In this document: positions 29,215-50,015 of the stretch, in pieces
Position numbering within the stretch: position 1 is the first letter of the stretch
Layout: each line of letters opens with the position of its first letter
Origin: a virus
Lineage: Duplodnaviria; Heunggongvirae; Uroviricota; Caudoviricetes
Direction: 5' to 3' (one strand)
Length of the DNA stretch: 50,015 bases
Virus record (IMG/VR): IMGVR_UViG_2917403263_000001
Notes under the pieces: model-generated
The model's input: the letters and a program-made list of their open reading frames with translations, nothing else
What the model was told of the DNA's origin: nothing
Database searches by the model: none
Translations under genes and position numbers: made by a program

Positions 29215-29364
29215 GCCTGTATATTACCATATGATGCAAATATAAAAGGCTCACCGAAGCGAACCTGATTCAAGCGTACTTGCTGCTACAACAGGGTTAT
29301 AATACCCCAACCACATAACGCCATGTGTTCTTTTCTAATGAGTTGGTGATAATTTTATACAAGC

Positions 29365-29390
29365 AAAAAAAACCGCCTGTTAAGGCGGTG
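29365..29390 (-). terminator. Intrinsic terminator (tR'-like, copy B)
   Basis: Minus strand reads CCGCC-ttaaca-GGCGG followed by T8. Confidence 0.75.
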
Positions 29391-29593
29391 GTCAAATCAT
29401 GAAGAGTATTATTATAATATAGGTGAGGTGTCGGGTGCCTCCCGAAATATCTGACATTCCATCAGATACTGTAGTTTCCCCGCTAAACAACCACTAAAAC
29501 CACCCCCGCACATGGGGTTCACCTCATTTTGTGATGTTAACAACATCGGGATAGTGCATAATCAGCCCCAGCTAGGAAATATCAAAAATCCCA

Positions 29594-29749: not shown

Positions 29750-29824
<75 letters not shown>

Positions 29825-29827
29825 ATA

Positions 29828-29903
<76 letters not shown>

Positions 29904-30136: not shown

Positions 30137-30163
30137 AAAAAAACCCGCCAGTGGCGGGTTTTT
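30137..30163. terminator. Bidirectional intrinsic terminator downstream of Q
   Basis: A7-CCCGCC-agtg-GGCGGG-T5; U-tracts are available on both strands. Confidence 0.7.
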
Positions 30164-30232: not shown

Positions 30233-30778
30233 TCACTTTGCAATAGTTTTTTTTTGTGCCGTGAACATTGGTTTATAAAGCATAAATTCAGCAATCATCA
30301 GCCATTGATCGATACGACGTCGACAGGTAATTAATGTCCAGTCAGGATGATTTTCATTTAACTGCTCTGCCATTTTCAGTTTGCTCATTCCCCGCCCTTC
30401 ATATCGTTGTCGGAGGATGCTAATTAATCCCGGATACTCGACCAGCACTTCGCTAATTACCCGATCAATACATAACGCCTCGGCATCAGTACAATGAGAC
30501 AACCAGCTTTTCTGCTTACCGTCGAGCATTTCCCGCAAAAATGCCTCCAGTTCCGTCTTATCAATTCCCGCTTTTTTCATCCTGCGCAGAGCTTCATTGA
30601 TGGCTGTTTTCGTCAATTTTTTGGATGCCAGCAACTGGTTAAACATATTCCCCGTCTTACCGCCGCCAATATACGACCAGCGCCCCCACATGCGCAGTTT
30701 TCCCTGAATCCAGACACTTTCCAGCGTGGTGAGACGAAGGTGTTCCCCGCTTTTTCCTGTATTTGTTGGGTAAATCAT
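30233..30778 (-). CDS. Late-gene antiterminator Q
   Basis: 181 aa from MIYPTNTGKSGEHLRLTTLESVWIQGKLRMWGRWSY...; ATGA overlap with the upstream gene; last gene before the late region. Confidence 0.8.
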   Translation of the reverse strand: MIYPTNTGKSGEHLRLTTLESVWIQGKLRMWGRWSYIGGGKTGNMFNQLLASKKLTKTAINEALRRMKKAGIDKTELEAFLREMLDGKQKSWLSHCTDAEALCIDRVISEVLVEYPGLISILRQRYEGRGMSKLKMAEQLNENHPDWTLITCRRRIDQWLMIAEFMLYKPMFTAQKKTIAK

Positions 30779-31068
30779 AAATAACCTTCCTTTCTCCAGA
30801 TTTCTTGTGTGCGAAAAACACCTTCTGCATGCATCAGGCGTAATTCTTCTTTGGTGTAATCGCTGGTTTTTACTCTCCCGTCGATTAAATCGTGGCATGA
30901 GCTACAGGCAATTGCAGCCTGCATATCGTGTGGCTTTGTCGCTGTTCCACACGTCCCCGCCAGTCTGTAATGCGCCAGCACGGAAGTTTCGGGATTGTGA
31001 TTGCAGTACCCAGGAATTCTGACCTGACACATCTGGCCCCGCGCCGCTTTACGTAAATCTGCCATCAC
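30775..31068 (-). CDS. ybcO: YbcO-like DUF1364 protein (putative nuclease of the nin region)
   Basis: 97 aa; MADLRKAARGQMCQVRIPGYCNHNPETSVLAHYRL...ACSSCHD matches the remembered YbcO pattern. Confidence 0.75.
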   Translation of the reverse strand: MMADLRKAARGQMCQVRIPGYCNHNPETSVLAHYRLAGTCGTATKPHDMQAAIACSSCHDLIDGRVKTSDYTKEELRLMHAEGVFRTQEIWRKEGYL

Positions 31069-31664
31069 GCAAACTCCAGCAGCTGTGCAGTCACATTTTC
31101 GACTTGTTCCGGAGAGGAAAATTTACGGAACAGAATCCAGTTCCACAGCACATTCAGTACAGATTTATAAACCTGCTGAAACTCGGTTTCGTCCATATTT
31201 GCAAACGCGATGGATTTCGCCCGACGCCCGCGGCTACCGTCCGGATAAAAATGCTCAGTGTAAAATCCGGCCTGAATGGTTACCCATTCACGGAAGGCGT
31301 CAAATGACTTGAGTAATGCCGTATCCTGGGTTCTGCGTGTCGCAACTGTATTCAGATATTGCTCTGCGGCTTCGCTCAGGGCTGGCGTATGTTCCCTGCC
31401 TACCGAGTCACACAGGTAATCAACGAAACCTGACACCAGTGTTCGTTCGCGAGGCGTGATCGCCCCACCGACCGGAGTCCAGTAATCGAATCCGAGTTGC
31501 AGGAGTTTGAAAAAACGCTTGTGGAATGCGTAGTTACGAACACGCTTAAAGTCAGCGTGTATCCACTCGCCTATTTTTATTTGATGCAGAAAATCGCAAC
31601 TCTCCGGCGTCGCCGGGAGAAGTAAACCAGAAGAAGTTTGTTTGACCAGTTGTATATGTGCCAT
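31065..31664 (-). CDS. DUF1367-family nin-region protein
   Basis: 199 aa; 4-nt overlap with the ybcO-like gene; pattern ...FHKRFFKLLQLGFDYW... Confidence 0.65.
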   Translation of the reverse strand: MAHIQLVKQTSSGLLLPATPESCDFLHQIKIGEWIHADFKRVRNYAFHKRFFKLLQLGFDYWTPVGGAITPRERTLVSGFVDYLCDSVGREHTPALSEAAEQYLNTVATRRTQDTALLKSFDAFREWVTIQAGFYTEHFYPDGSRGRRAKSIAFANMDETEFQQVYKSVLNVLWNWILFRKFSSPEQVENVTAQLLEFA

Positions 31665-31730
31665 CGGTTTTCTCCGGTGGCACGGTGTTACTCAGCAGGG
31701 GGTCAACCCTGTGCTGAATTGTAGATGAAT

Positions 31731-31991
31731 TCACTCAGTCTCAAAAGCAAAAAATCCAGCCTTAAGTCCTATCTCTTTCAAAGCCTGTAATGATGTGACA
31801 AATTCATCTTCACGTAAAATAAAACCGTCCACCATAAGTCCATCCACAAAATAAATTAACACAGCACCGTTCTTCCTTTGCTGGGATTGTAAACATTTAA
31901 TGCGGCAGTGACTGACAATAGTTCCATTCTCAACGCGCACAGCATAGAGGCCATTTTCACTAAACAATTCATGCAATTCTTCGATTTTCAT
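31731..31991 (-). CDS. Hypothetical 86-aa protein (AT-rich; part of the accessory island)
   Basis: ATG after GGAAGGA; no recognisable motif. Confidence 0.5.
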   Translation of the reverse strand: MKIEELHELFSENGLYAVRVENGTIVSHCRIKCLQSQQRKNGAVLIYFVDGLMVDGFILREDEFVTSLQALKEIGLKAGFFAFETE

Positions 31992-32128
31992 CTTCAGAAT
32001 CCTTCCAGATAAATAGCTCTCCCCTTTTCAGGGTCCATCCATCTTCTCCCTGCGCGCTACTCAAAACGGATGAATTCTAATTAATCTTTATTTCGAAGCA
32101 ATCGCAAACGATAAAGACAAAAATAAAA

Positions 32129-32155
32129 ACAAATACGACAAATACGACAAATACA
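32129..32155. repeat. 9-bp tandem repeat ACAAATACG x3
   Basis: acaaatacg acaaatacg acaaataca, read directly. Confidence 0.8.
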
Positions 32156-32239
32156 ATAATATCGAAAATTAACTAACCATTCGGACAACAAGGCAATATA
32201 ATTTCAGCTAAAATTATTAATCCCTTATTCATGAAAAAC

Positions 32240-32260
32240 AAAACCCGCCGAAGCGGGTTA
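32240..32260 (-). terminator. Intrinsic terminator after the HTH-peptidase gene; identical 21-mer to 34075..34095
   Basis: Minus strand reads TAACCCGC-TTCG-GCGGGTTTT. Confidence 0.75.
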
Positions 32261-32263
32261 TGC

Positions 32264-33385
32264 CTAGTGAATTTTGCCTCTAAGAGTTCGGTAAGATTGT
32301 AGTGAAACAACATCACCACTTCCTGGCAGTTCATGAACCGCAGGAAGATCATCTCCAACTAACTCATAAAAAATGTCCACTTCTATATCCATTTCATCAG
32401 CTATACGCTGTGGGTCGTATCCTAACTCTTCAAATAAAAACGATAAAGCCCGACGGAATAACTCAGGACGCTCATGAGGGATTAGATAATCTTCTTTTTC
32501 ATCAATAGCTTCCCCTTTCCGTTTCAACCCCATAAATGCAGTTCTGTACTGCTCATCAGTCAAAAGTCCTAATTGATGAGCCCTGTAAACAATGGCAGCC
32601 TTACTTACTTTCCATGTCAACTTAAATTGGCTTAGTCCCTGCCAATTTATCCTCCCCCCCACAGGTCTTGGAAAATATTTCGCCATCGACGTTCTGGGAA
32701 GCAACAGAGCAGAGGCAAAACGGTTTGCCTGGGATTCAGTTAATCTATCACCAGTAGAAATTCCTTCATGAAGAATCAAATGGGCAACCTCATGAGCAAT
32801 ATCAAAGCGTTGCCTACAAGGTGAATTTTTAGCTGTATTTCGAACAATAAAAGGCCTTCGTAGAGGAACAGACAGTGCATCTACTTCATCCGAAACGGAG
32901 TCAAATGAAGTAACAAACGCCCCAAGTTTCTCGGCCAGGCGAGTCATATTTTCAATTGGGCCAAAGCCTAAGCCCCACTCAATACGACATTTTTCTGCCG
33001 CTCGCTCGATATCTTCTTGTGTATGGACACGAAATTCAGGAAATCGAACAGGTGACAAATTAAGATTATCTTCAAATACATCAATAAAACGACGATAAAA
33101 CTCAGCCTTAGCGAGTGTTGATAGCTTCGTTGACATCCTTGTCGAGGCGCGTTTACGAAAATGTACAATCTCTTCATTAACAGGAGAATGTTCCTGCCCT
33201 TCGAAAAAGGCGGGCTTCACGCGCAAAACCTCGGCTAATTTATTTATAAGCTCTGGGGATGGAGTAGCTGAACCAGACTCCAGTCGCTGTACATACTGGC
33301 GTGTTTTTTCAACCTTCTCAGCAACCTGCTCCAGAGATAGCTCGTGATACAGACGAGCAAGTCTTAAATTAGTACCGTTAAACAC
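32264..33385 (-). CDS. HTH-XRE plus ImmA/IrrE (M78, COG2856) zinc-metallopeptidase fusion protein; RmrA-like antitoxin/sensor candidate
   Basis: 373 aa. N-terminal LRLARLYHELSLEQVAEKVEKTRQYVQRLESG is an XRE-type HTH. HEXXH motif in FDIAHEVAHLILHE, followed by the E..AN.FA pattern typical of ImmA/IrrE. Confidence 0.8.
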   Translation of the reverse strand: MFNGTNLRLARLYHELSLEQVAEKVEKTRQYVQRLESGSATPSPELINKLAEVLRVKPAFFEGQEHSPVNEEIVHFRKRASTRMSTKLSTLAKAEFYRRFIDVFEDNLNLSPVRFPEFRVHTQEDIERAAEKCRIEWGLGFGPIENMTRLAEKLGAFVTSFDSVSDEVDALSVPLRRPFIVRNTAKNSPCRQRFDIAHEVAHLILHEGISTGDRLTESQANRFASALLLPRTSMAKYFPRPVGGRINWQGLSQFKLTWKVSKAAIVYRAHQLGLLTDEQYRTAFMGLKRKGEAIDEKEDYLIPHERPELFRRALSFLFEELGYDPQRIADEMDIEVDIFYELVGDDLPAVHELPGSGDVVSLQSYRTLRGKIH

Positions 33386-33395
33386 ATTTCACCCA

Positions 33396-33989
33396 CTATT
33401 TGCTATTTTGTTTCTTTTCCTTCTCAGTCTTAGACGCACTGATAGGTTCTAGTTCGATAGGTACCGGTGCTGGAGGTACATCATCGACAGAGTTCAGCAT
33501 AACAACACGGTCCGCACCATATGTCCAAGTTGACACGATCTCACCAAACACGTTATAGCCATTAAAAATGACTTTACCACCCTCGCCTTCAAATTCAGGC
33601 TTTTCAACCACAAAGCGATGCATAGTTGGAGTGGTCTCCTCTGACTCAAAGAGTCGATCAGCATCGTTTCTTTTGAAAAAACCGCGTTTCTTGGGATTAT
33701 CTGCGTCATCAGTAAAGAAACGAATAGGGACATTCCCAATTGAAAACGTAAGATCCATGCCAGGATTAAGTAGTCTTAACCAGTCATATGTCTTTCGTAC
33801 GCACATTTGTAGCAACGCCTGCCGCTGACGCCCAAATGTACAACCACCACGAGTGTAATTATCATCATAGGGCGATGACAATAACTCATGAGTAATATCC
33901 TGTATCCTGAGCAACTCCTCAGCTATTATGGTTAAACGATCCTCTGTTAACTCAGGAAAGAACTCCCAAGGGAATGGATGGTTCTGCAT
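33396..33989 (-). CDS. Unknown 197-aa protein, partner of the HTH-peptidase (toxin/effector candidate)
   Basis: ATG at 33989, 9 nt after GGAG (the track ORF starts at an upstream TTG); 10-nt gap to the downstream gene; no recognisable motif. Confidence 0.6.
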   Translation of the reverse strand: MQNHPFPWEFFPELTEDRLTIIAEELLRIQDITHELLSSPYDDNYTRGGCTFGRQRQALLQMCVRKTYDWLRLLNPGMDLTFSIGNVPIRFFTDDADNPKKRGFFKRNDADRLFESEETTPTMHRFVVEKPEFEGEGGKVIFNGYNVFGEIVSTWTYGADRVVMLNSVDDVPPAPVPIELEPISASKTEKEKKQNSK

Positions 33990-34024
33990 AGACACATCTC
34001 CGTCTAATCCGTGCAAAAAACGAC

Positions 34025-34071
34025 TTTTGTCAACCAAGATATTGGTGCATATTCATAATTTTGTCAACCAA
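34025..34071 (-). promoter_or_regulatory. Cassette promoter TTGACA-N17-CAATAT flanked by two 13-bp direct repeats TTGGTTGACAAAA (operator candidates)
   Basis: On the minus strand: -35 at 34062-34067, -10 at 34039-34044; repeats at 34059-34071 (over the -35) and 34025-34037 (over the predicted start site). Confidence 0.5.
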
Positions 34072-34074
34072 TAA

Positions 34075-34095
34075 AAAACCCGCCGAAGCGGGTTA
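34075..34095 (-). terminator. Intrinsic terminator after hokD; identical 21-mer to 32240..32260
   Basis: Minus strand reads TAACCCGC-TTCG-GCGGGTTTTTT. Confidence 0.75.
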
Positions 34096-34159
34096 AGCGC
34101 GGGTGCGTTGAGGATGCCTGACACATCAGAGGTGGCGGGGGTTTACCCCGCCTGGTCTC

Positions 34160-34315
34160 TTACTCCTCAGGTTCGTAAGCTGTGAAGACAGCGACCTCCG
34201 TCTGGCCGGTTCGGATTCGTACCTCGCAGAGGTCTTTCCTCGTTACCAGTGCCGTCACTATGACGGTTAAACAGATGACGATCAGGGCGATTAACATCGC
34301 CTTTTGCTGCTTCAT
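34160..34315 (-). CDS. hokD: Hok/Gef-family type I toxin (HokD/RelF-like)
   Basis: 51 aa; MKQQKAMLIALIVICLTVIVTALVTRKDLCEVRIRTGQTEVAVFTAYEPEE matches my recollection of HokD; a structured hok-type leader lies upstream. Confidence 0.85.
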   Translation of the reverse strand: MKQQKAMLIALIVICLTVIVTALVTRKDLCEVRIRTGQTEVAVFTAYEPEE

Positions 34316-34582
34316 AGCCTGCTTCTCCTTGACCTTTCGGTCCGTAAGAGGCAATCTATATGTGACGAGCATATAGGGGCCTCACTTCGATTTATAGTCG
34401 GGTGGGGCTTTTCTCTATCTGCCTTTGGTAGCATGCCCGAGGCAGATAGCCTCAAGCACCCGCAGCAATTCTACTTAACTATCTTTTTCCCGCAAATCGT
34501 TTTTATCCCCAGCGGCAAATCGAATACACCATCAGCGCCACCGCCATTGCAATTCCTACCGTTGTGAATGCTTCAGGCCAAC

Positions 34583-35017
34583 TCATTGATTCACCTCCTG
34601 CGGCGGTTCTGGTAGCGGCATCCAGTGGGTTACATTGCGGCTCTGTGTTTCGAAGAACTCCTCACCATTGCGGACAACATCAAAAAACTCACTGTCTCGA
34701 TATTGCGCATAAAGAACGAATGCGCCATCACATAAAATAATTACGTGCTGACCATCATCTGGCATTCGCTCACTACAGCTTATCCAAGCATCCGGAGCTA
34801 CCGGGTAGTTGCCCAATAGCTCGTTCAACTTCACCTTAATCTCCACATTTCTCAGCTTTAGCACTATTGGTAGGTCTGACTTTCCGGTTAATGCTAATGC
34901 GAGATTTTCTGGAGTAATGAGAGCAGTTATTGTTTTCCCCATTGCCAGACGAATAATCATTCGTATCTCTCGATCGTCACATGCTCCCGGTCGAACAATT
35001 GATATTTGTCCATTCAT
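34583..35017 (-). CDS. DUF551-domain protein
   Basis: 144 aa from MNGQISIV...; C-terminal WISCSERMPDDG...THWMPLPEPP; TGATATG junction with the upstream gene. Confidence 0.7.
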   Translation of the reverse strand: MNGQISIVRPGACDDREIRMIIRLAMGKTITALITPENLALALTGKSDLPIVLKLRNVEIKVKLNELLGNYPVAPDAWISCSERMPDDGQHVIILCDGAFVLYAQYRDSEFFDVVRNGEEFFETQSRNVTHWMPLPEPPQEVNQ

Positions 35018-35018
35018 A

Positions 35019-35537
35019 TCAATCTCCTTTTCCATGAAACAGGTGCTCACGACTGGATTTCCAGAATATCCATGCCAGATCAACATTCGGGTCCTGGTAA
35101 TTCATCCCTTCGTTGGCACGAAGCAATAATGTTTCATGGTTTTTATCACCCGCATGAAACCTGACAAGTGCTTCGAACTGTTCGCGACCATCATCTGGCA
35201 TTCGCTCACTACAGCTTATCCAACCATCCGGAGTTACCGAAATTGGCGGCGCGGCATATAGCTTACGGGTCTGAACACCTGCCCCCTGACATTTCTCTTC
35301 CTCAACAAATCCTTCGTAAACGCATTCTCCGCAATCTTCCCATTCTCCCCATTCATCATATTCTGCATCCCACTGGCGATACTGATATGCCACTGGCTCT
35401 GCTTCCAACGATGCCAGCGCAATACGAAACACATTGGCAAGCAGGCTGTTTGAAGATTGGTTATCGTGCGCCGCATCGCTCAGAAAGCCAGTGATGAATG
35501 ATTTAATCTCTGCGCTTTCTCTGGTAATAGTTGCCAT
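35019..35537 (-). CDS. DUF551-domain protein with an LASLEAEP linker
   Basis: 172 aa from MATITRESAEI...; WISCSERMPDDG motif; TGATATG junction. Confidence 0.7.
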   Translation of the reverse strand: MATITRESAEIKSFITGFLSDAAHDNQSSNSLLANVFRIALASLEAEPVAYQYRQWDAEYDEWGEWEDCGECVYEGFVEEEKCQGAGVQTRKLYAAPPISVTPDGWISCSERMPDDGREQFEALVRFHAGDKNHETLLLRANEGMNYQDPNVDLAWIFWKSSREHLFHGKGD

Positions 35538-35538
35538 A

Positions 35539-35757
35539 TCAGTTTTCCTTATACGGATTAATTTTATTGTGCAGTGTGTTGAACGAGGCCCATACCACGT
35601 CGTTATACAATTCAATAACTGGCTCAATTATTTTCCCGATTCCCCATACCAGAATTAACGGGGATATCGGTATCATCAACACGATAAACAGAATGAGAAA
35701 CAGGAATTCTGTTGTTCGACTTCTTCGCGGATAATTTTTCCTGAATAGTGTAGGCAT
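35539..35757 (-). CDS. Small membrane protein
   Basis: 72 aa with one TM segment (FLFLILFIVLMIPISPLILVWGIG); tightly packed. Confidence 0.5.
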   Translation of the reverse strand: MPTLFRKNYPRRSRTTEFLFLILFIVLMIPISPLILVWGIGKIIEPVIELYNDVVWASFNTLHNKINPYKEN

Positions 35758-43815: not shown

Positions 43816-46800
43816 ATGAGCACAAAACCACTTTTCCTGTTACGGAAAGCGAAAAAATCATCCGGTGAACCTGACGTCGTCCTCTGGGCAAGCGACGATT
43901 TTGAATCGACCTGTGCCACTCTGGACTACCTGCTCGTTAAGTCAGGTAAAAAACTGAGCAGCTATTTTAAACATGTTGCCACGAATTTTCCTGTCGTTAA
44001 TGACCTTCCCCCTGAAGGTGAGATCGATTTTACCTGGAGTGAACGCTATCAACTCAGCAAAGACTCCATGACCTGGGAACTAAAACCAGGAACAGCGCCA
44101 GACGACGTTCACCATCAGGAGAATGCACCGGAAACCGAAGAACCGGCGGGAGGCCAGGAAGAAAACACACGGGCAGACGCTCACGGGGATTGCCAGGATT
44201 GCGAAGTATCTGTATCTACTTTGCGGTTCACACAGCGTCTTCTGCACATTTTTACCTATGCGGCCGGGGATCGGAAATACCTGCATCATGCCACCCGAGA
44301 ACAACGCGAACACATTACTGCTCTTGAGATGGATCAGGAAAACAGCTATGTCCAGAATCTGCTGTTGGCCATACGCGGCATGGCAGAACCGACAACTCTG
44401 GATAATGCCGCCCTGCTCCGCCTGACTGATGCAATTAAGGCAGTTTTCTCTATCACGAAAAAACATCAGCCCTATGAATTTAAGAATTTCATTTCAGCCT
44501 GGCTGGATACCGAACACATTGATCGCGGTCTTCTGACAAAAGAATGGCAAAAAGGGAATCGTGTTTCACGCATCACTCGCACGGCTTCCGGTGCTAATGC
44601 TGGCGGCGGGAACCTCACCGATCGCGGCGAAGGTTTCGTCCATGATCTGACGTCACTGGCGCGCGATGTAGCCACTGGCGTACTGGCCCGTTCAATGGAC
44701 GTGGACATCTATAACCTTCATCCGGCACACGCGAAACGCATTGAGGAAATTATCGCTGAAAATAAACCGCCCTTTTCTGTTTTCCGCGACAAATTCATCA
44801 CCATGCCTGGCGGGCTGGATTATTCACGCGCCATCGTGGTTGCGTCCGTGAAAGAAGCACCAATTGGGATCGAGGTCATCCCCGCGCACGTCACTGAATA
44901 TCTGAACAAAGTACTGACTGAAACCGATCATGCCAACCCTGATCCGGAAATCGTGGATATTGCCTGCGGTCGCTCCTCTGCCCCGATGCCGCAGCGTGTA
45001 ACAGAAGAAGGAAAACAGGATGATGAAGAAAAACCACAACCAACTGGAACAACGGCAGATGAACAGGGAGAGGCTGAAACAATGGAACCGGACGCAACTG
45101 AACATCATCAGGACACGCAGCCGCTGGATGCTCAGTCACAGGTAAATTCTGTTGATGCGAAATATCAGGAACTGCGGGCAGAACTCCATGAAGCCCGGAA
45201 AAACATTCCATCAAAAAATCCTGTCGATGCCGATAAATTGCTTGCTGCATCACGTGGTGAATTTGTTGACGGAATTAGCGACCCGAACGATCCGAAATGG
45301 GTTAAGGGGATCCAGACTCGCGATTCTGTGTACCAGAACCAGCCAGAAACGGAACAAAACACGCCAGAAACTGAAAAAACCAGCCCGGATGTGAAACAAC
45401 CAGAGCCAGTAGTGCAACAGGAACCGGAGAAAGTCTGCAATGTCTGTGGCAAGACTGGCGGGGATAACTGCCCTGACTGTGGTGCGGTGATGGGCGACGC
45501 AACATACCAGGAAACATTCGATGAAGAGAATCAGGTTGAAGCTAAGGAAAAAGATCCGGTGGAAATGGAAGGCGCTGAACATCCGCACAATGAGAATGCT
45601 GGCAGCGATCCGCATCGTGATTGCAGTGATGAAACTGGTGAAGCGTCAGCTCCTGTAGCAACTGAAATCATGTGGCCGTCATATTTCGAGCCTGGCCGCT
45701 ATGAAAACCTCCCGAACGAGGTTTATCACTCCGCCAACGGAATAAGCAGCACGATGCTGAAGGATGCCCGTATCAGCCTGATGTATTACCACGGACGGCA
45801 CATTACCGGAACTATTCCGAACGAGGAAAGTGATGCACTGCTGCGTGGGCGGATCATTCACAGCTATGTTCTGGAAACGGATAAATTCGCTGATGAATAT
45901 GCCATTCCGGTACCGGTTCCTGAATATGTGGTTACTACTTCTAACGAACTGATCGCCATCATTAAAAAACACAATGCCAGTCTGCCAGCACTGATGACAC
46001 CAGAGCAGATGAAAGAGTGGATCGAAAGCTACAACAGCACTCTTATACAGCCACTGTCTGTAAGTGCCGGGGCCGAAGAAACAGGCATCCTTTACGGTTC
46101 GCTTCCGGTGGAATTTCGGCGTATTCCTGAGGGGGAAAAACACACAGCATCAGCAATGAAAGCCTGTATTAAAGAATACAACGCAAGCCTCCCTCCTCTG
46201 TTGAAAACCAGTGGAGCACGGGAGCAGCTTCTGGATCAAATTGAAACTGTAGACCCAGAACTGGCAAAAAAAGAACGTGCTAAATCTTTGCCTTACAACA
46301 TCAGTGGCACAAAAGAGCAATTAACCGAAATCGCACGGAAAATTCGCCCGGAACTGGTGACACTGGAGGACTGGCAAAAACGCCAGCAAGAAGAAAATGC
46401 CGGGAAAACGTTTATCAGTCCGGATATGTATGAACAGGCAAAAAATATTCACGCGGCACTGCAAAACAATACCGATGCAGCAAGGCTACTCAACCACCCG
46501 GATCGCAAATCTGAAATCAGCTATTTCGGGTTTGATGAAGAAACCGGGCTGGAAATCAGGGTCCGTCCTGATATCGAAATCCGGCTGCCATACGAAAGCA
46601 TTTGCGCTGACGTGAAGTCAGTCAGCCTCGGTTATGTGCGACAGGAACGACTTAAAGATCGCCTGCACCGTGAAATTATTGAGCGTGATTATCACCTCAG
46701 CGCCGCAATGTATTGCGATGTGGCAAACCTGGACAAATTTTTCTGGATCTTCGTCAACAAAGATGCTGGCTATCACTGGGTGGCAGTCGTGGAAGCCTCG

Positions 46801-46959
46801 CAGGAACTCCTGGAACTTGGTCGACAGGAATATCGCCGGACGCTACGCCAGATAAACGAAGCCCTGGAGACAAACAACTGGCCAGCACCGATTACCGAAA
46901 GTTATACCGACGAATTAAACGACTTTGATCTTCGTCGTCTTGAAGCACTGAGCATCTGA
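43816..46959 (+). CDS. recE: RecE-type exonuclease VIII (long N-terminal region plus C-terminal PD-(D/E)XK exonuclease)
   Basis: 1047 aa. The N-terminus [26 protein letters not shown]... and the central region match my recollection of Rac RecE. The C-terminal third is a different exonuclease variant. Confidence 0.85.
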
Positions 46960-46970
46960 GGAAGGACACA

Positions 46971-48023
46971 ATGAACGAATTAACTCAACAAGAAAATATT
47001 AACTCTAATGTTGCGGTTTTCAGCCCTCAGTCCCTGGCTGCAATTCAGACATTTTCCCAGGTAATGGCTTCCGGCATGGCTACTGTACCGGAACACCTCC
47101 GGGGAAATCCATCAGACTGCATGGCCATCACCATGCAGGCGATGCAGTGGCAAATGAACCCTTACGCAGTAGCTCAGAAAACTTTCGTTGTGAATGGTGT
47201 GCTCGGATATGAAGCGCAACTGGTTAATGCCGTAATCAGTACTCGTGGGCCGCTAACCGGGCGTATTGAATATGACTGGTTCGGGCCGTGGGAAAAAATT
47301 ATCGGGAAATTTGAAATCAGGAAGAGCGACAAAGGGAAAGAATATCGTGTACCTGGCTGGAAGCTGGCCGATGAAAACGGGATCGGTGTTCGTGTCCAGG
47401 CAACACTACGCGGCGAAAGTAAACCACGCGTACTGGAATTACTTCTGGCGCAGGCCAGAACACGTAACTCAACGCTATGGGCCGACGATCCTCGCCAGCA
47501 GCTTGCCTATCTGGCGCTGAAACGCTGGGCGCGCCTTTATTGCCCCGAAGTGATTCTTGGAGTGTACACCAGGGACGAACTGGACGAGCCACAGGAAAAA
47601 ATCATTAATCCGGTTCAGGAACATAAAAACACTTCCGCTTGCCGCGCGGAACGTGAAACAACAATTATTGAGCAGGATGCCGGGGAAAACTGGATCGATG
47701 CTTTCCGTGAACGTATTGAGCAGGCACAAAGCACCGGGGAAACAACAGCACTTCGCCAGGAAGTGGAAGATCATAAAAATACACTTGGCGCTCTCTATAC
47801 GGAACTTAAAGGAAAAGTGGTTCAGCGTCATCACCGTCTCAATGCTATTGCCCGTATCGAGAAGATGATAAATGACCTACCTTCTTCAGGTGATCCAGAA
47901 GCAGAACAAAAATTTACTGCTCTGGAAAATACGCTGAATGCTGCCCGGCCACATCTGGGTGAATTATATGAGGCGTATAAAACGACACTGACAGATATGA
48001 AACCAGAATATATCGGCTCCTGA
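46971..48023 (+). CDS. Single-strand annealing protein (RecT/Red-beta superfamily)
   Basis: 350 aa immediately after recE; N-terminal core DCMAITMQAMQWQMNPYAVAQKTFVVNGVLGYEAQL fits the RecT/Bet pattern. Confidence 0.75.
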   Translation: MNELTQQENINSNVAVFSPQSLAAIQTFSQVMASGMATVPEHLRGNPSDCMAITMQAMQWQMNPYAVAQKTFVVNGVLGYEAQLVNAVISTRGPLTGRIEYDWFGPWEKIIGKFEIRKSDKGKEYRVPGWKLADENGIGVRVQATLRGESKPRVLELLLAQARTRNSTLWADDPRQQLAYLALKRWARLYCPEVILGVYTRDELDEPQEKIINPVQEHKNTSACRAERETTIIEQDAGENWIDAFRERIEQAQSTGETTALRQEVEDHKNTLGALYTELKGKVVQRHHRLNAIARIEKMINDLPSSGDPEAEQKFTALENTLNAARPHLGELYEAYKTTLTDMKPEYIGS

Positions 48024-48778: not shown

Positions 48779-50015
48779 ATGTCTAAATTACCAACAGGTG
48801 TCGAGATTCGAGGTAAATACATTCGCATCTGGTTCATGTTTCGAGGAAAACGATGTCGGGAAACATTGAAAGGCTGGGAGGTTACTAACAGTAACATTAA
48901 AAAGGCCGGGAATTTAAGAGCATTGATAGTTCATGAAATCAACTCCGGTGAATTTGAGTATTTAAGACGTTTTCCCCAGTCCAGCACTGGGGCAAAAATG
49001 GTGACAACGAGGGTCATAAAAACGTTCGGGGAGCTTTGTGATATCTGGACAAAAATTAAAGAGACAGAGTTAACAACAAACACAATGAAGAAAACGAAAT
49101 CACAATTAAAAACAACTCAGGATAATAATTTGTGAGAGTACACATATATCACATATTCGTTATAGCGATATCTTAAACTACCGGAATGAACTGCTGCATG
49201 GAGAAACGCTTTACCTGGATAATCCAAGATCCAACAAAAAAGGAAGAACCGTGCGCACAGTTGATAACTATATCGCCCTGCTCTGTTCGTTGTTACGTTT
49301 TGCGTATCAGTCGGGATTTATATCAACCAAACCATTTGAAGGAGTAAAAAAATTACAGCGAAACAGAATAAAGCCTGATCCGTTATCTAAAACAGAATTC
49401 AATGCATTAATGGAAAGTGAAAAAGGACAGAGCCAGAACTTGTGGAAATTTGCCGTTTACTCCGGGCTTCGTCACGGGGAACTGGCTGCTCTGGCGTGGG
49501 AGGATGTGGATTTCGAGAAGGGAATTGTGAATGTCAGAAGAAACCTGACGATACTTGATATGTTCGGTCCCCCAAAAACAAATGCGGGGATCCGGACGGT
49601 AACACTACTACAGCCTGCTCTTGAAGCACTGAAGGAGCAATACAAACTGACCGGGCATCATCGCAAAAGCGAAATCACTTTTTATCATCGGGAGTACGGC
49701 AGAACCGAAAAGCAAAAACTGCATTTTGTTTTCATGCCCAGGATGTGTAACGGAAAACAGAAACCTTATTACTCGGTAAGCAGTTTGGGTGCGAGATGGA
49801 ATGCAGCTGTAAAACGTGCTGGTATTCGCCGCCGTAATCCGTACCATACGCGACATACTTTTGCCTGCTGGCTGTTGACGGCAGGAGCGAACCCGGCATT
49901 TATAGCCAGCCAGATGGGGCATGAAACTGCGCAGATGGTGTATGAAATTTACGGTATGTGGATTGATGACATGAACGACGAACAGGTAGCTATGTTGAAT
50001 GCGCGGTTATCGTAG
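48779..50015 (+). pseudogene. intR: Tyrosine integrase (IntR-like), interrupted by a +1 frameshift near 49108-49133
   Basis: The N-terminal 118-aa ORF stops at 49135. A second frame is open from 49110 (...LRIIICESTHISHIRYSDILNYRNELLHGE...) to 50015 and carries the catalytic R...HxxR...Y region (NPYHTRHTFACWLL...MGHETAQMVYEIY). Total about 411 codons. Confidence 0.85.

Follow-up and report, generated by a model that had tools for sequence, protein, structure and literature searches.

Terminator hairpins bound a RosmerTA cassette in a recurrent cargo slot downstream of hokD in lambdoid prophages

Background

The 50,015-nt window analysed here (IMG/VR record IMGVR_UViG_2917403263_000001, Caudoviricetes) contains a Rac-like prophage in which a two-gene cassette, identified by profile matches as the anti-phage toxin-antitoxin (TA) system RosmerTA, sits between the type I toxin gene hokD and a rem homologue. 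The cassette is bracketed by two identical 21-nt copies of a predicted terminator hairpin. The same hairpin joint is common to at least five cargos and at least five downstream backbones, and the position downstream of hokD therefore behaves as a cargo slot in which the hairpin is a reused mosaic joint. The system itself and its moron-like architecture are ordinary; the new part is a joint reused with nucleotide precision. A hotspot of this kind, located downstream of hokD in lambdoid prophages and with terminator hairpins as joints, is apparently undescribed.

The original prediction, made from the letters of the window, was that a terminator duplicated by insertion of the cassette marks the precise boundaries of a mobile cargo slot. 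It is partly supported: the slot and its boundaries are real, an insertion scar is unlikely and the 21-mer is generic.

A recurrent cargo slot downstream of hokD

Five cargos, unrelated to one another or strongly diverged and all bracketed by the same 19-nt hairpin, were found at this position among 5426 complete E. coli genomes. In 23 of them the RosmerTA cassette of the window occurs together with hokD and the two hairpins. A second Rosmer pair, whose RmrA and RmrT have 43% and 24% amino acid identity to those of the window with no similarity at the DNA level, is found in 237 genomes, and a third Rosmer variant in 41. The remaining two cargos are a helix-turn-helix (HTH) protein with a separate M78 peptidase (48 genomes) and a Fic/Doc toxin preceded by a small open reading frame (ORF), that is Phd/Doc (120 genomes). 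Summed, the five cargos account for 469 occurrences, or about 9% of the genomes if no genome has two. All of them lie on the hokD strand and have their stop codon 3-15 nt before the distal hairpin.

The cassette of the window was also found in one IMG/VR contig. In this contig and in the 23 complete genomes homology to the window begins at about position 32234, at the left hairpin, and the backbone beyond this point is different and has no rem. The second Rosmer pair, carried by strain CMZE063 and 236 others, has a left flank of the K-12 Qin type, for which K-12 Qin itself is the matching empty site.

When the 150 nt downstream of the hokD hairpin were clustered for 121 sites, they fell into five cassette-free backbone classes and five cargo classes, and all 15 same-strand cassettes among these sites were bracketed. 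At 124 hok-type hairpin sites in IMG/VR a second copy was present within 2.5 kb downstream in 14 cases, and no second hairpin was found upstream of hok (within 4 kb) or in inverted orientation at any of these sites, in 370 kb of control sequence. The possibility that the hairpin is a general prophage repeat was rejected on these grounds, and also because the window holds no other copy with up to three mismatches. The hairpin forms the junction between the same cargo and differing left flanks, at least four for Doc and three for the cassette of the window. In about ten different combinations of cargo and left flank both junctions are unresolvable within the hairpin and no spacer is left. Two groups of sites, the L011 type and the L252 type, were considered as hairpin-less cassettes and rejected, being backbone variants with a rem-like gene and a small convergent ORF, respectively.

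The expectation that other cargo would occupy the same slot within the same boundaries was confirmed by the five hairpin-bracketed classes, some of which have several left flanks each. Together with the empty sites described below, the recurrent cargo upholds two further statements of the original prediction, that the unit recombined through a pre-existing terminator and that the repeats give the precise boundaries of a cargo slot.

In the L252-type IMG/VR loci and in E. coli 042 (locus L003, 2739-2826) a hydrophobic ORF of 28 amino acids, MENNKSAHYAPFLSVILFVLCCAWALFL, converges on the hok terminator; it could encode a small membrane toxin-like peptide. A different set of variable cargo, without hairpin bracketing, occupies the opposite strand directly upstream of hok in related prophages. 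This comprises an HTH and Peptidase_M78 pair, split or fused (L335 2151-3079, L338 2158-3086 and L340 2141-3070), and a DNA methylase with an AAA/SMC-like ATPase (L333 442-3335). The upstream side of hokD may thus be a second variable region.

Anatomy of the repeated hairpin

The 21-mer AAAACCCGCCGAAGCGGGTTA occurs on the + strand of the window exactly twice, at 32240-32260 and 34075-34095, as originally stated. No third copy with up to three mismatches was detected in the window, and 100 shuffles that preserved dinucleotide composition produced no match. The bases before and after the 21-mer differ between the copies, being C and TGCC at the left copy and A and AGCG at the right one. Since exact identity stops at 21 nt, the hairpin repeat was rejected as part of a longer duplicated segment, and a repeat family of 49 nt and 76% identity (D3) reflects only A/T-rich flanks.

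Read on the minus strand, both copies are AACCCGC-TTCG-GCGGGTT (TAACCCGC-TTCG-GCGGGTTTT), a perfect stem of 7 bp, five of them G-C, with a UUCG loop and a T-run, and the terminator scan classified both as terminator-like, with the tails TTTTTTAT at the right copy and TTGTTTTT at the left one. The fold of the 21-nt RNA has a free energy of -11.8 kcal/mol (z = -3.8). The left hairpin begins 3 nt past the stop codon of rmrA and the right one 64 nt past the hok/mok stop at 34160, in agreement with the original assignment of the right copy to hokD and of the left one to the HTH-peptidase gene. Each copy is a G+C-rich hairpin with a U-run at the 3′ end of a predicted transcription unit, and both can be classified as predicted intrinsic terminators of one generic type, in which an A-run precedes a CCCGC/GCGGG stem with closing A-U pairs and a U-run follows it, the loop being UUCG. 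The T-rich tail of the left copy (TTTTGTTTTTCATGAA as transcribed) is the tail that follows the single copy in cassette-free prophages. The hok-side flank of the right copy, TTAAG[C/T]GCGGGTGCGTTGAGG on the + strand, is conserved across thousands of E. coli hokD loci.

Another strong minus-strand terminator, with the same CCCGCC/GGCGGG stem and another loop (AAAAACCCGCCACTGGCGGGTTTTT), was noted at 30139-30163, downstream of the Q-like antiterminator gene and near two tRNA genes (29753-29903).

Empty sites and near-isogenic relatives

Related prophages lacking the cassette have one copy of the 21-mer, not both. In E. coli C012 (locus L005) the empty site reads rem, leader, TTATTCGTGAAAAAC, the single 21-mer, AGTGCGGGTGCG and hokD; its left flank is the flank of the left copy in the window and its right flank is the flank of the right copy. 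About 15 more complete genomes (H144-H158) gave the same 107-bp split match with one copy. At least 24 contigs encode a Rem protein identical to that of the window, and seven of the eight places examined show hok, one hairpin, rem and the DUF1367 gene in this order. At one empty site (L334) the two flanks are 99.5% and 98.7% identical to those of the window, and the eighth contig (L336; GCA_005781135.1, contig VATQ01000006.1) has the filled arrangement of the window at 100% identity.

The order hokD, hairpin, rem is contiguous in E. coli C012, in K-12 Qin, in Rac and in the seven contigs. The single copy foreseen at the empty site was found in all three sets of relatives (C012, the further complete genomes and the seven contigs). 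The neighbourhood had been misread: the cassette was thought to adjoin the DUF1367 gene, and empty relatives were expected to have hokD followed directly by that gene. The cassette lies between hokD and rem, and the empty relatives read hokD, hairpin, rem, DUF1367.

Coverage of positions 30700-35100 stays below 80% in all 5426 complete E. coli genomes, the cassette was not found in the deposited phage genomes of INPHARED, and the exact left junction of the window is absent from IMG/VR and from the plasmids of PLSDB. Across complete E. coli genomes, INPHARED, PLSDB and IMG/VR, the combination of the rem backbone with this cassette is matched only by the draft assembly GCA_005781135.1.

The cassette encodes a RosmerTA pair

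The upstream gene of the cassette, rmrT, and the downstream one, rmrA, lie on the same strand and are separated by 10 nt. The rmrA product matches the Pfam families HTH_3 (1.5e-12) and Peptidase_M78 (8.4e-17), and aligns with the PADLOC RmrA profile PDLC03943 (4.3e-201) through residues 1-368 of its 370 positions. The rmrT product matches the PADLOC RmrT profile PDLC03929 (1.3e-92). The mechanically called rmrT ORF reaches back to a TTG codon at 34037 (213 amino acids); the profile alignment beginning at residue 17, the length of homologues (197-199 amino acids) and a GGAG Shine-Dalgarno motif before the ATG at 33989 point to this ATG as the true start, which would give a protein of 197 amino acids. 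On the strength of both profile matches the cassette is assigned to RosmerTA, a system defined by Millman et al. 2022 (bioRxiv 10.1101/2022.05.11.491447) as a toxin of unknown function with an antitoxin carrying a Zn-peptidase domain.

Upstream of rmrT, 3 nt from the right hairpin copy, there is a putative promoter/operator region. Its two exact 13-nt repeats (repeat D11, 34025-34037 and 34059-34071) bracket a -10-like CAATAT, which stands 17 nt after the first TTGACA; the consensus promoter scan called no promoter at 34025-34071. Repeats of the form GGTTGACAAA also precede relatives of rmrT in P2-like prophages and in Phytobacter, and for this reason the TTGGTTGACAAAA repeats are probably the operator of the RmrA HTH domain and the promoter of the cassette. 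The two diverged Rosmer cargos likewise retain TTTGTCAACCAG.

The G+C content of the cassette, 0.427, is below that of the window (0.481) and of the flanking backbone genes (0.478-0.486). The description of the cassette as an AT-rich two-gene unit flanked by the repeats is correct as to its low G+C content; as to its limits it is not, since the adjoining stretch on the left with rem and its leader (31665-32239) is lower still, at 0.379.

A generic terminator and the origin of the left copy

Each of two collections scanned gave at least 120 matches to the exact 21-mer. It was found in the genomes of at least 120 species, 117 of 120 without hok nearby, among them Pseudomonas, Rhizobium, Nostoc, Bacteroidota and Erysipelotrichaceae. 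The 222 occurrences listed fall into at least 128 clusters of unrelated flanks spread across phyla. The original prediction had named a common terminator scattered through unrelated loci as the outcome that would speak against it, and the 21-mer is such a terminator. Because it is generic, the identity of the two copies alone is no evidence of duplication.

The origin of the left copy can be approached through relatives of the cargos in other places. P2-like prophages contain relatives of rmrTA, with an RmrT identity of 57-61%, in the interval from the replication gene (Phage_GPA) to the portal gene, which we take to be the P2 defence hotspot of the literature. These relatives end in AATCCCGCTTCGGCGGGATTTTTTATT, which has the same 14-nt core, CCCGCTTCGGCGGG, as the 21-mer, and no similar hairpin was found upstream of their rmrT. 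A relative of doc in a tail-gene slot ends in AAACCCGCTCCGGCGGGTTTT, one mismatch from the hairpin of the hokD slot. Bracketing of the cassette families outside the slot was accordingly rejected, both relatives having a single 3′ hairpin and none upstream. Other terminators were also seen: in a lambdoid prophage of Phytobacter an RmrT relative of 87% identity goes with a UUCG hairpin whose stem is different, and the Proteus relatives have an unrelated terminator.

Within the slot the distal (left) copies have cargo-specific bases before the stem (TAA, ATA or AAA), with a loop variant in the third Rosmer cargo, and share the long T-rich tail of the backbone. In the proximal copies the flank is that of the hok side and the tail differs with the cargo. 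Cargo-specific bases combined with a backbone tail are the pattern expected of a crossover in the 3′ half of the hairpin and the T-run and not of a target-site duplication. As relatives elsewhere end in the same core and have no copy upstream, the left copy most likely represents the terminator of the cassette itself, a hybrid with a backbone-derived T-rich tail, and probably not a duplicated target. The duplicated terminator or insertion scar originally proposed thus becomes unlikely.

In loci L329 and L330 three terminators with 1-4 mismatches to the 19-nt hairpin (at 1081, 3498 and 4101) are found within 3 kb of a tail-gene region with a phd/doc moron. Morons of enterobacterial temperate phages may commonly end in hairpins of this type.

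How the cassette may have been joined to the prophage

In the explanation that we favour, with a probability of about 0.6, the cassette was joined to the prophage by short-homology recombination through the shared terminator hairpin, the unit being moron-like and the catalyst likely of the RecET type. Such a self-contained moron would consist of the operator/promoter, rmrT, rmrA and its own terminator, and we infer that a crossover inside the shared hairpin and T-run, over 19-21 nt of identity, would link it to the prophage. Two routes may be envisaged: integration of a circular copy of the cassette by a single crossover, or exchange with a prophage that already carries the cassette between two hairpins. 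The likely catalyst of either route would be a phage annealing recombinase such as the RecET of this prophage, as RecE and RecT form a single-strand-annealing system which could act on homologies as short as that of the hairpin. PMC3945230 attributes lambdoid mosaicism to Rad52-like recombinases, Rac RecT included, acting through short homologies. The 21-bp direct repeats would also permit precise loss of the cassette, so that empty sites might be ancestral or derived.

The arrangement would at the same time insulate the cassette. The upstream terminator would stop read-through from hok/mok into rmrT, and the downstream one would keep constitutive rmrTA transcription out of rem and the Q-like antiterminator gene in the lysogen. 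During lytic growth antiterminated early transcription would, judging from the nin region of lambda, read through both terminators.

Several points weigh against recombination through the hairpin. According to PMC3945230 the minimal length for efficient pairing is about 31-34 bp; the 19-21 nt available here fall below it, and such crossovers would be rare. Only end states were compared, and the circle, the excision product and the intermediate remain proposals. With at least 128 unrelated contexts the identical terminators could be convergent, and insertions could be confined to this point without any role of homology if only those that left the terminators and the rem promoter intact were viable. 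Many of the loci may descend from few insertion events, and precise deletion between the repeats could have produced the empty sites. The promoter, terminator and anti-phage activities of the cassette are predictions from sequence, and the promoter scan made no call.

A rival explanation is coincidence combined with selection. The terminators would have arisen independently and the cassette would have entered by illegitimate recombination, as the classical model of moron accretion has it; only those insertions survived that spared the terminators and the rem promoter, and the mechanism owed nothing to the identity of the hairpins. We regard it as doubtful, though deserving serious attention. 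It is consistent with the spread of the 21-mer over many phyla, overwhelmingly away from hok, with the near-identical and unbracketed terminators of the cargo relatives elsewhere, and with the short neutral target offered between the hokD terminator and the rem promoter. It does not readily account for five cargos in about ten cargo/left-flank combinations whose junctions all lie within the hairpin without a spacer. Nor would it predict that every same-strand slot cassette found ends in this hairpin and never in another terminator, while no such hairpin is present in the 370 kb on the other side of hok. The experiments described in PMC3945230, moreover, indicate that homology-dependent exchange dominates over illegitimate recombination in lambdoid phages. 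A true insertion scar, in which a staggered-cut insertion duplicated about 19-21 bp of the hokD terminator as a target site, appears highly improbable. The 21-nt identity of the window copies, the single copy at empty sites and the similar shared length (19-21 nt) across cargo classes would all fit a target-site duplication. The cassette, however, consists of rmrT and rmrA only: ORFs, repeats, Pfam and PADLOC revealed no transposase, recombinase or terminal inverted repeats inside it or at its ends. The left copies differ from the right ones by cargo-specific bases and, in the third Rosmer variant, by a loop base, and the P2-like rmrTA relatives have the same hairpin core as their only terminator. 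A duplication of 19-21 bp would far exceed those made by known bacterial transposases. A transposable element with target-site duplication was therefore rejected, given the lack of an element enzyme and the hairpin core carried by the cargo relatives themselves.

The least credible explanation, in our opinion, is dedicated hairpin-directed recombination, in which a specific protein of an attC- or HUH-like kind would recognise the UUCG hairpin folded as single-stranded or cruciform DNA and move promoter-gene-hairpin cassettes from one prophage hotspot to another. Unrelated cargo is recurrently bracketed, related hairpins end the same cargo families in the P2 gpA-portal and tail-gene slots, and the same possibility was raised by Arbiol et al. 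for the stem-loops of T4-type phages (PMC2839356). Against this, no candidate enzyme is linked to the cassettes and the sole integrase of the window is 15 kb away, the stem is short and perfect without the extrahelical bases of attC, and more than 100 unrelated genomes have the same sequence as an ordinary terminator. A wider form of recombination through the hairpin is more speculative than its local form, and we consider it unlikely: UUCG terminator hairpins might serve as portable linkers by which self-contained TA and defence cassettes hop, through short-homology or hairpin-assisted recombination catalysed by phage annealing recombinases, between hotspots of different temperate phage families. 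These hotspots would include the position downstream of hokD, the gpA-portal position of P2-like phages and the tail-gene moron slots, possibly with mini-circles. If true, this would be an enzyme-free, integron-like cassette system built on transcription terminators.

The movement of defence systems between prophage hotspots is largely unexplained, and the moron model assumes rare illegitimate events. The near-isogenic filled and empty alleles make the idea of a terminator-hairpin linker for RecET/Red directly testable, and the position downstream of hokD is a place to seek new defence genes in lambdoid prophages. Should selection alone have produced the joint, what remains is an ordinary moron with a known system.

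Prophage context

The features of the window referred to above are collected in Table 1. Besides RecE and RecT, the Rac-like prophage carries SieB, a cI-like repressor, replication genes and an integrase, and the only integrase in the window is its tyrosine integrase (48779-50015). The identification of hokD/mok (Pfam HOK_GEF, 2.9e-23) agrees with the RefSeq annotation of homologous loci. The rem homologue has about 80% DNA identity to rem of K-12, and Pfam Rem is listed for the identical protein in eight contigs. The DUF1367 gene is followed by DUF1364/YbcO and then by the DUF1133 Q-like antiterminator gene.

Table 1 Features of the window in and around the RosmerTA cassette and the annealing recombinase genes
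Feature	Position	Strand	Description
DUF1367 gene	31065..31664	-	backbone of nin-like region; Pfam DUF1367 4e-97
rem homologue	31731..31991	-	86 amino acids; directly follows the hokD terminator in cassette-free prophages
rem leader/promoter region (putative)	31992..32239	-	A/T-rich; contiguous with the single hairpin in empty sites
Left 21-mer copy	32240..32260	-	predicted intrinsic terminator closing the rmrTA operon, 3 nt after the rmrA stop
rmrA, RosmerTA antitoxin	32264..33385	-	373 amino acids; XRE-type HTH fused to Peptidase_M78 (ImmA/IrrE) Zn-peptidase
rmrT, RosmerTA toxin	33396..33989	-	197 amino acids from ATG at 33989
Cassette promoter/operator region (putative)	34025..34071	-	two 13-nt direct repeats (TTGGTTGACAAAA as transcribed), each with TTGACA
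Right 21-mer copy	34075..34095	-	resident predicted terminator of the hok/mok transcript
mok frame	34160..34372	-	hokD nested inside at 34160-34315, 51 amino acids, type I toxin
sok-family match (hok/sok regulatory region)	34313..34461	-	Rfam RF01794, 110 bits against a gathering threshold of 59, E = 4e-25
recE	43816-46959	+	Pfam Exonuc_VIII 1.7e-65
recT	46971-48023	+	Pfam RecT 4.6e-43

The rem leader holds a 9-nt tandem repeat, CAAATACGA, of about three units (32130-32156). The corresponding stretch in E. coli C012 (L005 2960-3075) has about 11 units of a ACAAACAAT-like repeat, the repeat being variable in number. Upstream of hokD two overlapping DUF551-type ORFs (34583-35086 and 35019-35627) are tandem paralogues and contain a 54-nt direct repeat of 96% identity (34750-34803 and 35186-35239). 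A sub-threshold Rfam match to the STnc100 small RNA was obtained at 29360-29551 (42.9 bits against a gathering threshold of 47, E = 6e-7).

Comparison with known systems

The cassette has the same two-gene content and order as described RosmerTA systems, and each protein aligns along its whole length with its PADLOC profile. Its gene content shows no difference, and the anti-phage role of this allele is a prediction. In its build the cassette resembles the morons of lambdoid phages (Juhala/Hendrix 2000; reviewed in PMC3594210): it is an autonomous unit with a putative promoter region and a factor-independent terminator of its own, its neighbours hokD and rem are adjacent in related prophages, its G+C content is below the average of the window, although that of the adjacent rem region is lower, and its cargo is of a kind that benefits the lysogen. 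The accretion of morons is ascribed to illegitimate recombination with no conservation of the flanks (PMC2839356), whereas here both joints are one shared hairpin reused by five cargos and several backbones. Integron cassettes with their attC sites differ more widely, as the cassette has its own putative promoter/operator, the stem is a perfect 7 bp, and there is no IntI or attI, only the integrase of the prophage. In a limited search of the literature we found no described defence hotspot at hokD or in the nin region, and no terminator-bounded exchange of cargo or morons in lambdoid phages.

In the promoter/stem-loop (PeSL) cassettes of T4-type phages, variable ORFs lie between promoter/stem-loop repeats, which recombine with one another and give rise to mini-circles (Arbiol et al. 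2010, PMC2839356). Common to both cases are a plastic region whose non-essential variable genes are flanked by repeats of a stem-loop terminator, insertions and deletions bounded by the repeats, elements proposed as sites of homologous exchange or circle excision, and terminators that would insulate the inserted unit. A PeSL comprises a conserved sigma-70 promoter together with the stem-loop and is found in one phage lineage with many copies per genome. Here, in contrast, only 19-21 nt of the hairpin and T-run are common to the loci, each cargo has its own putative promoter region and there are two copies per prophage. The hosts are temperate, lambdoid or Rac-like, and mini-circles, known for PeSL, are a proposal in this case. 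The defence hotspots of P2 and P4 (2022, PMC9122126; PMC13586616) likewise offer a fixed position in a temperate phage to alternative anti-phage or TA cargo, and P2-like prophages carry the relatives of rmrTA mentioned above. They belong to another phage family, whereas the present slot lies downstream of hokD in the nin-like region of lambdoid and Rac-like prophages and has its boundaries set at the nucleotide level by a repeated hairpin. By analogy, PeSL may be regarded as the closest mechanistic precedent of the hokD slot and the P2/P4 hotspots as its closest ecological counterpart.

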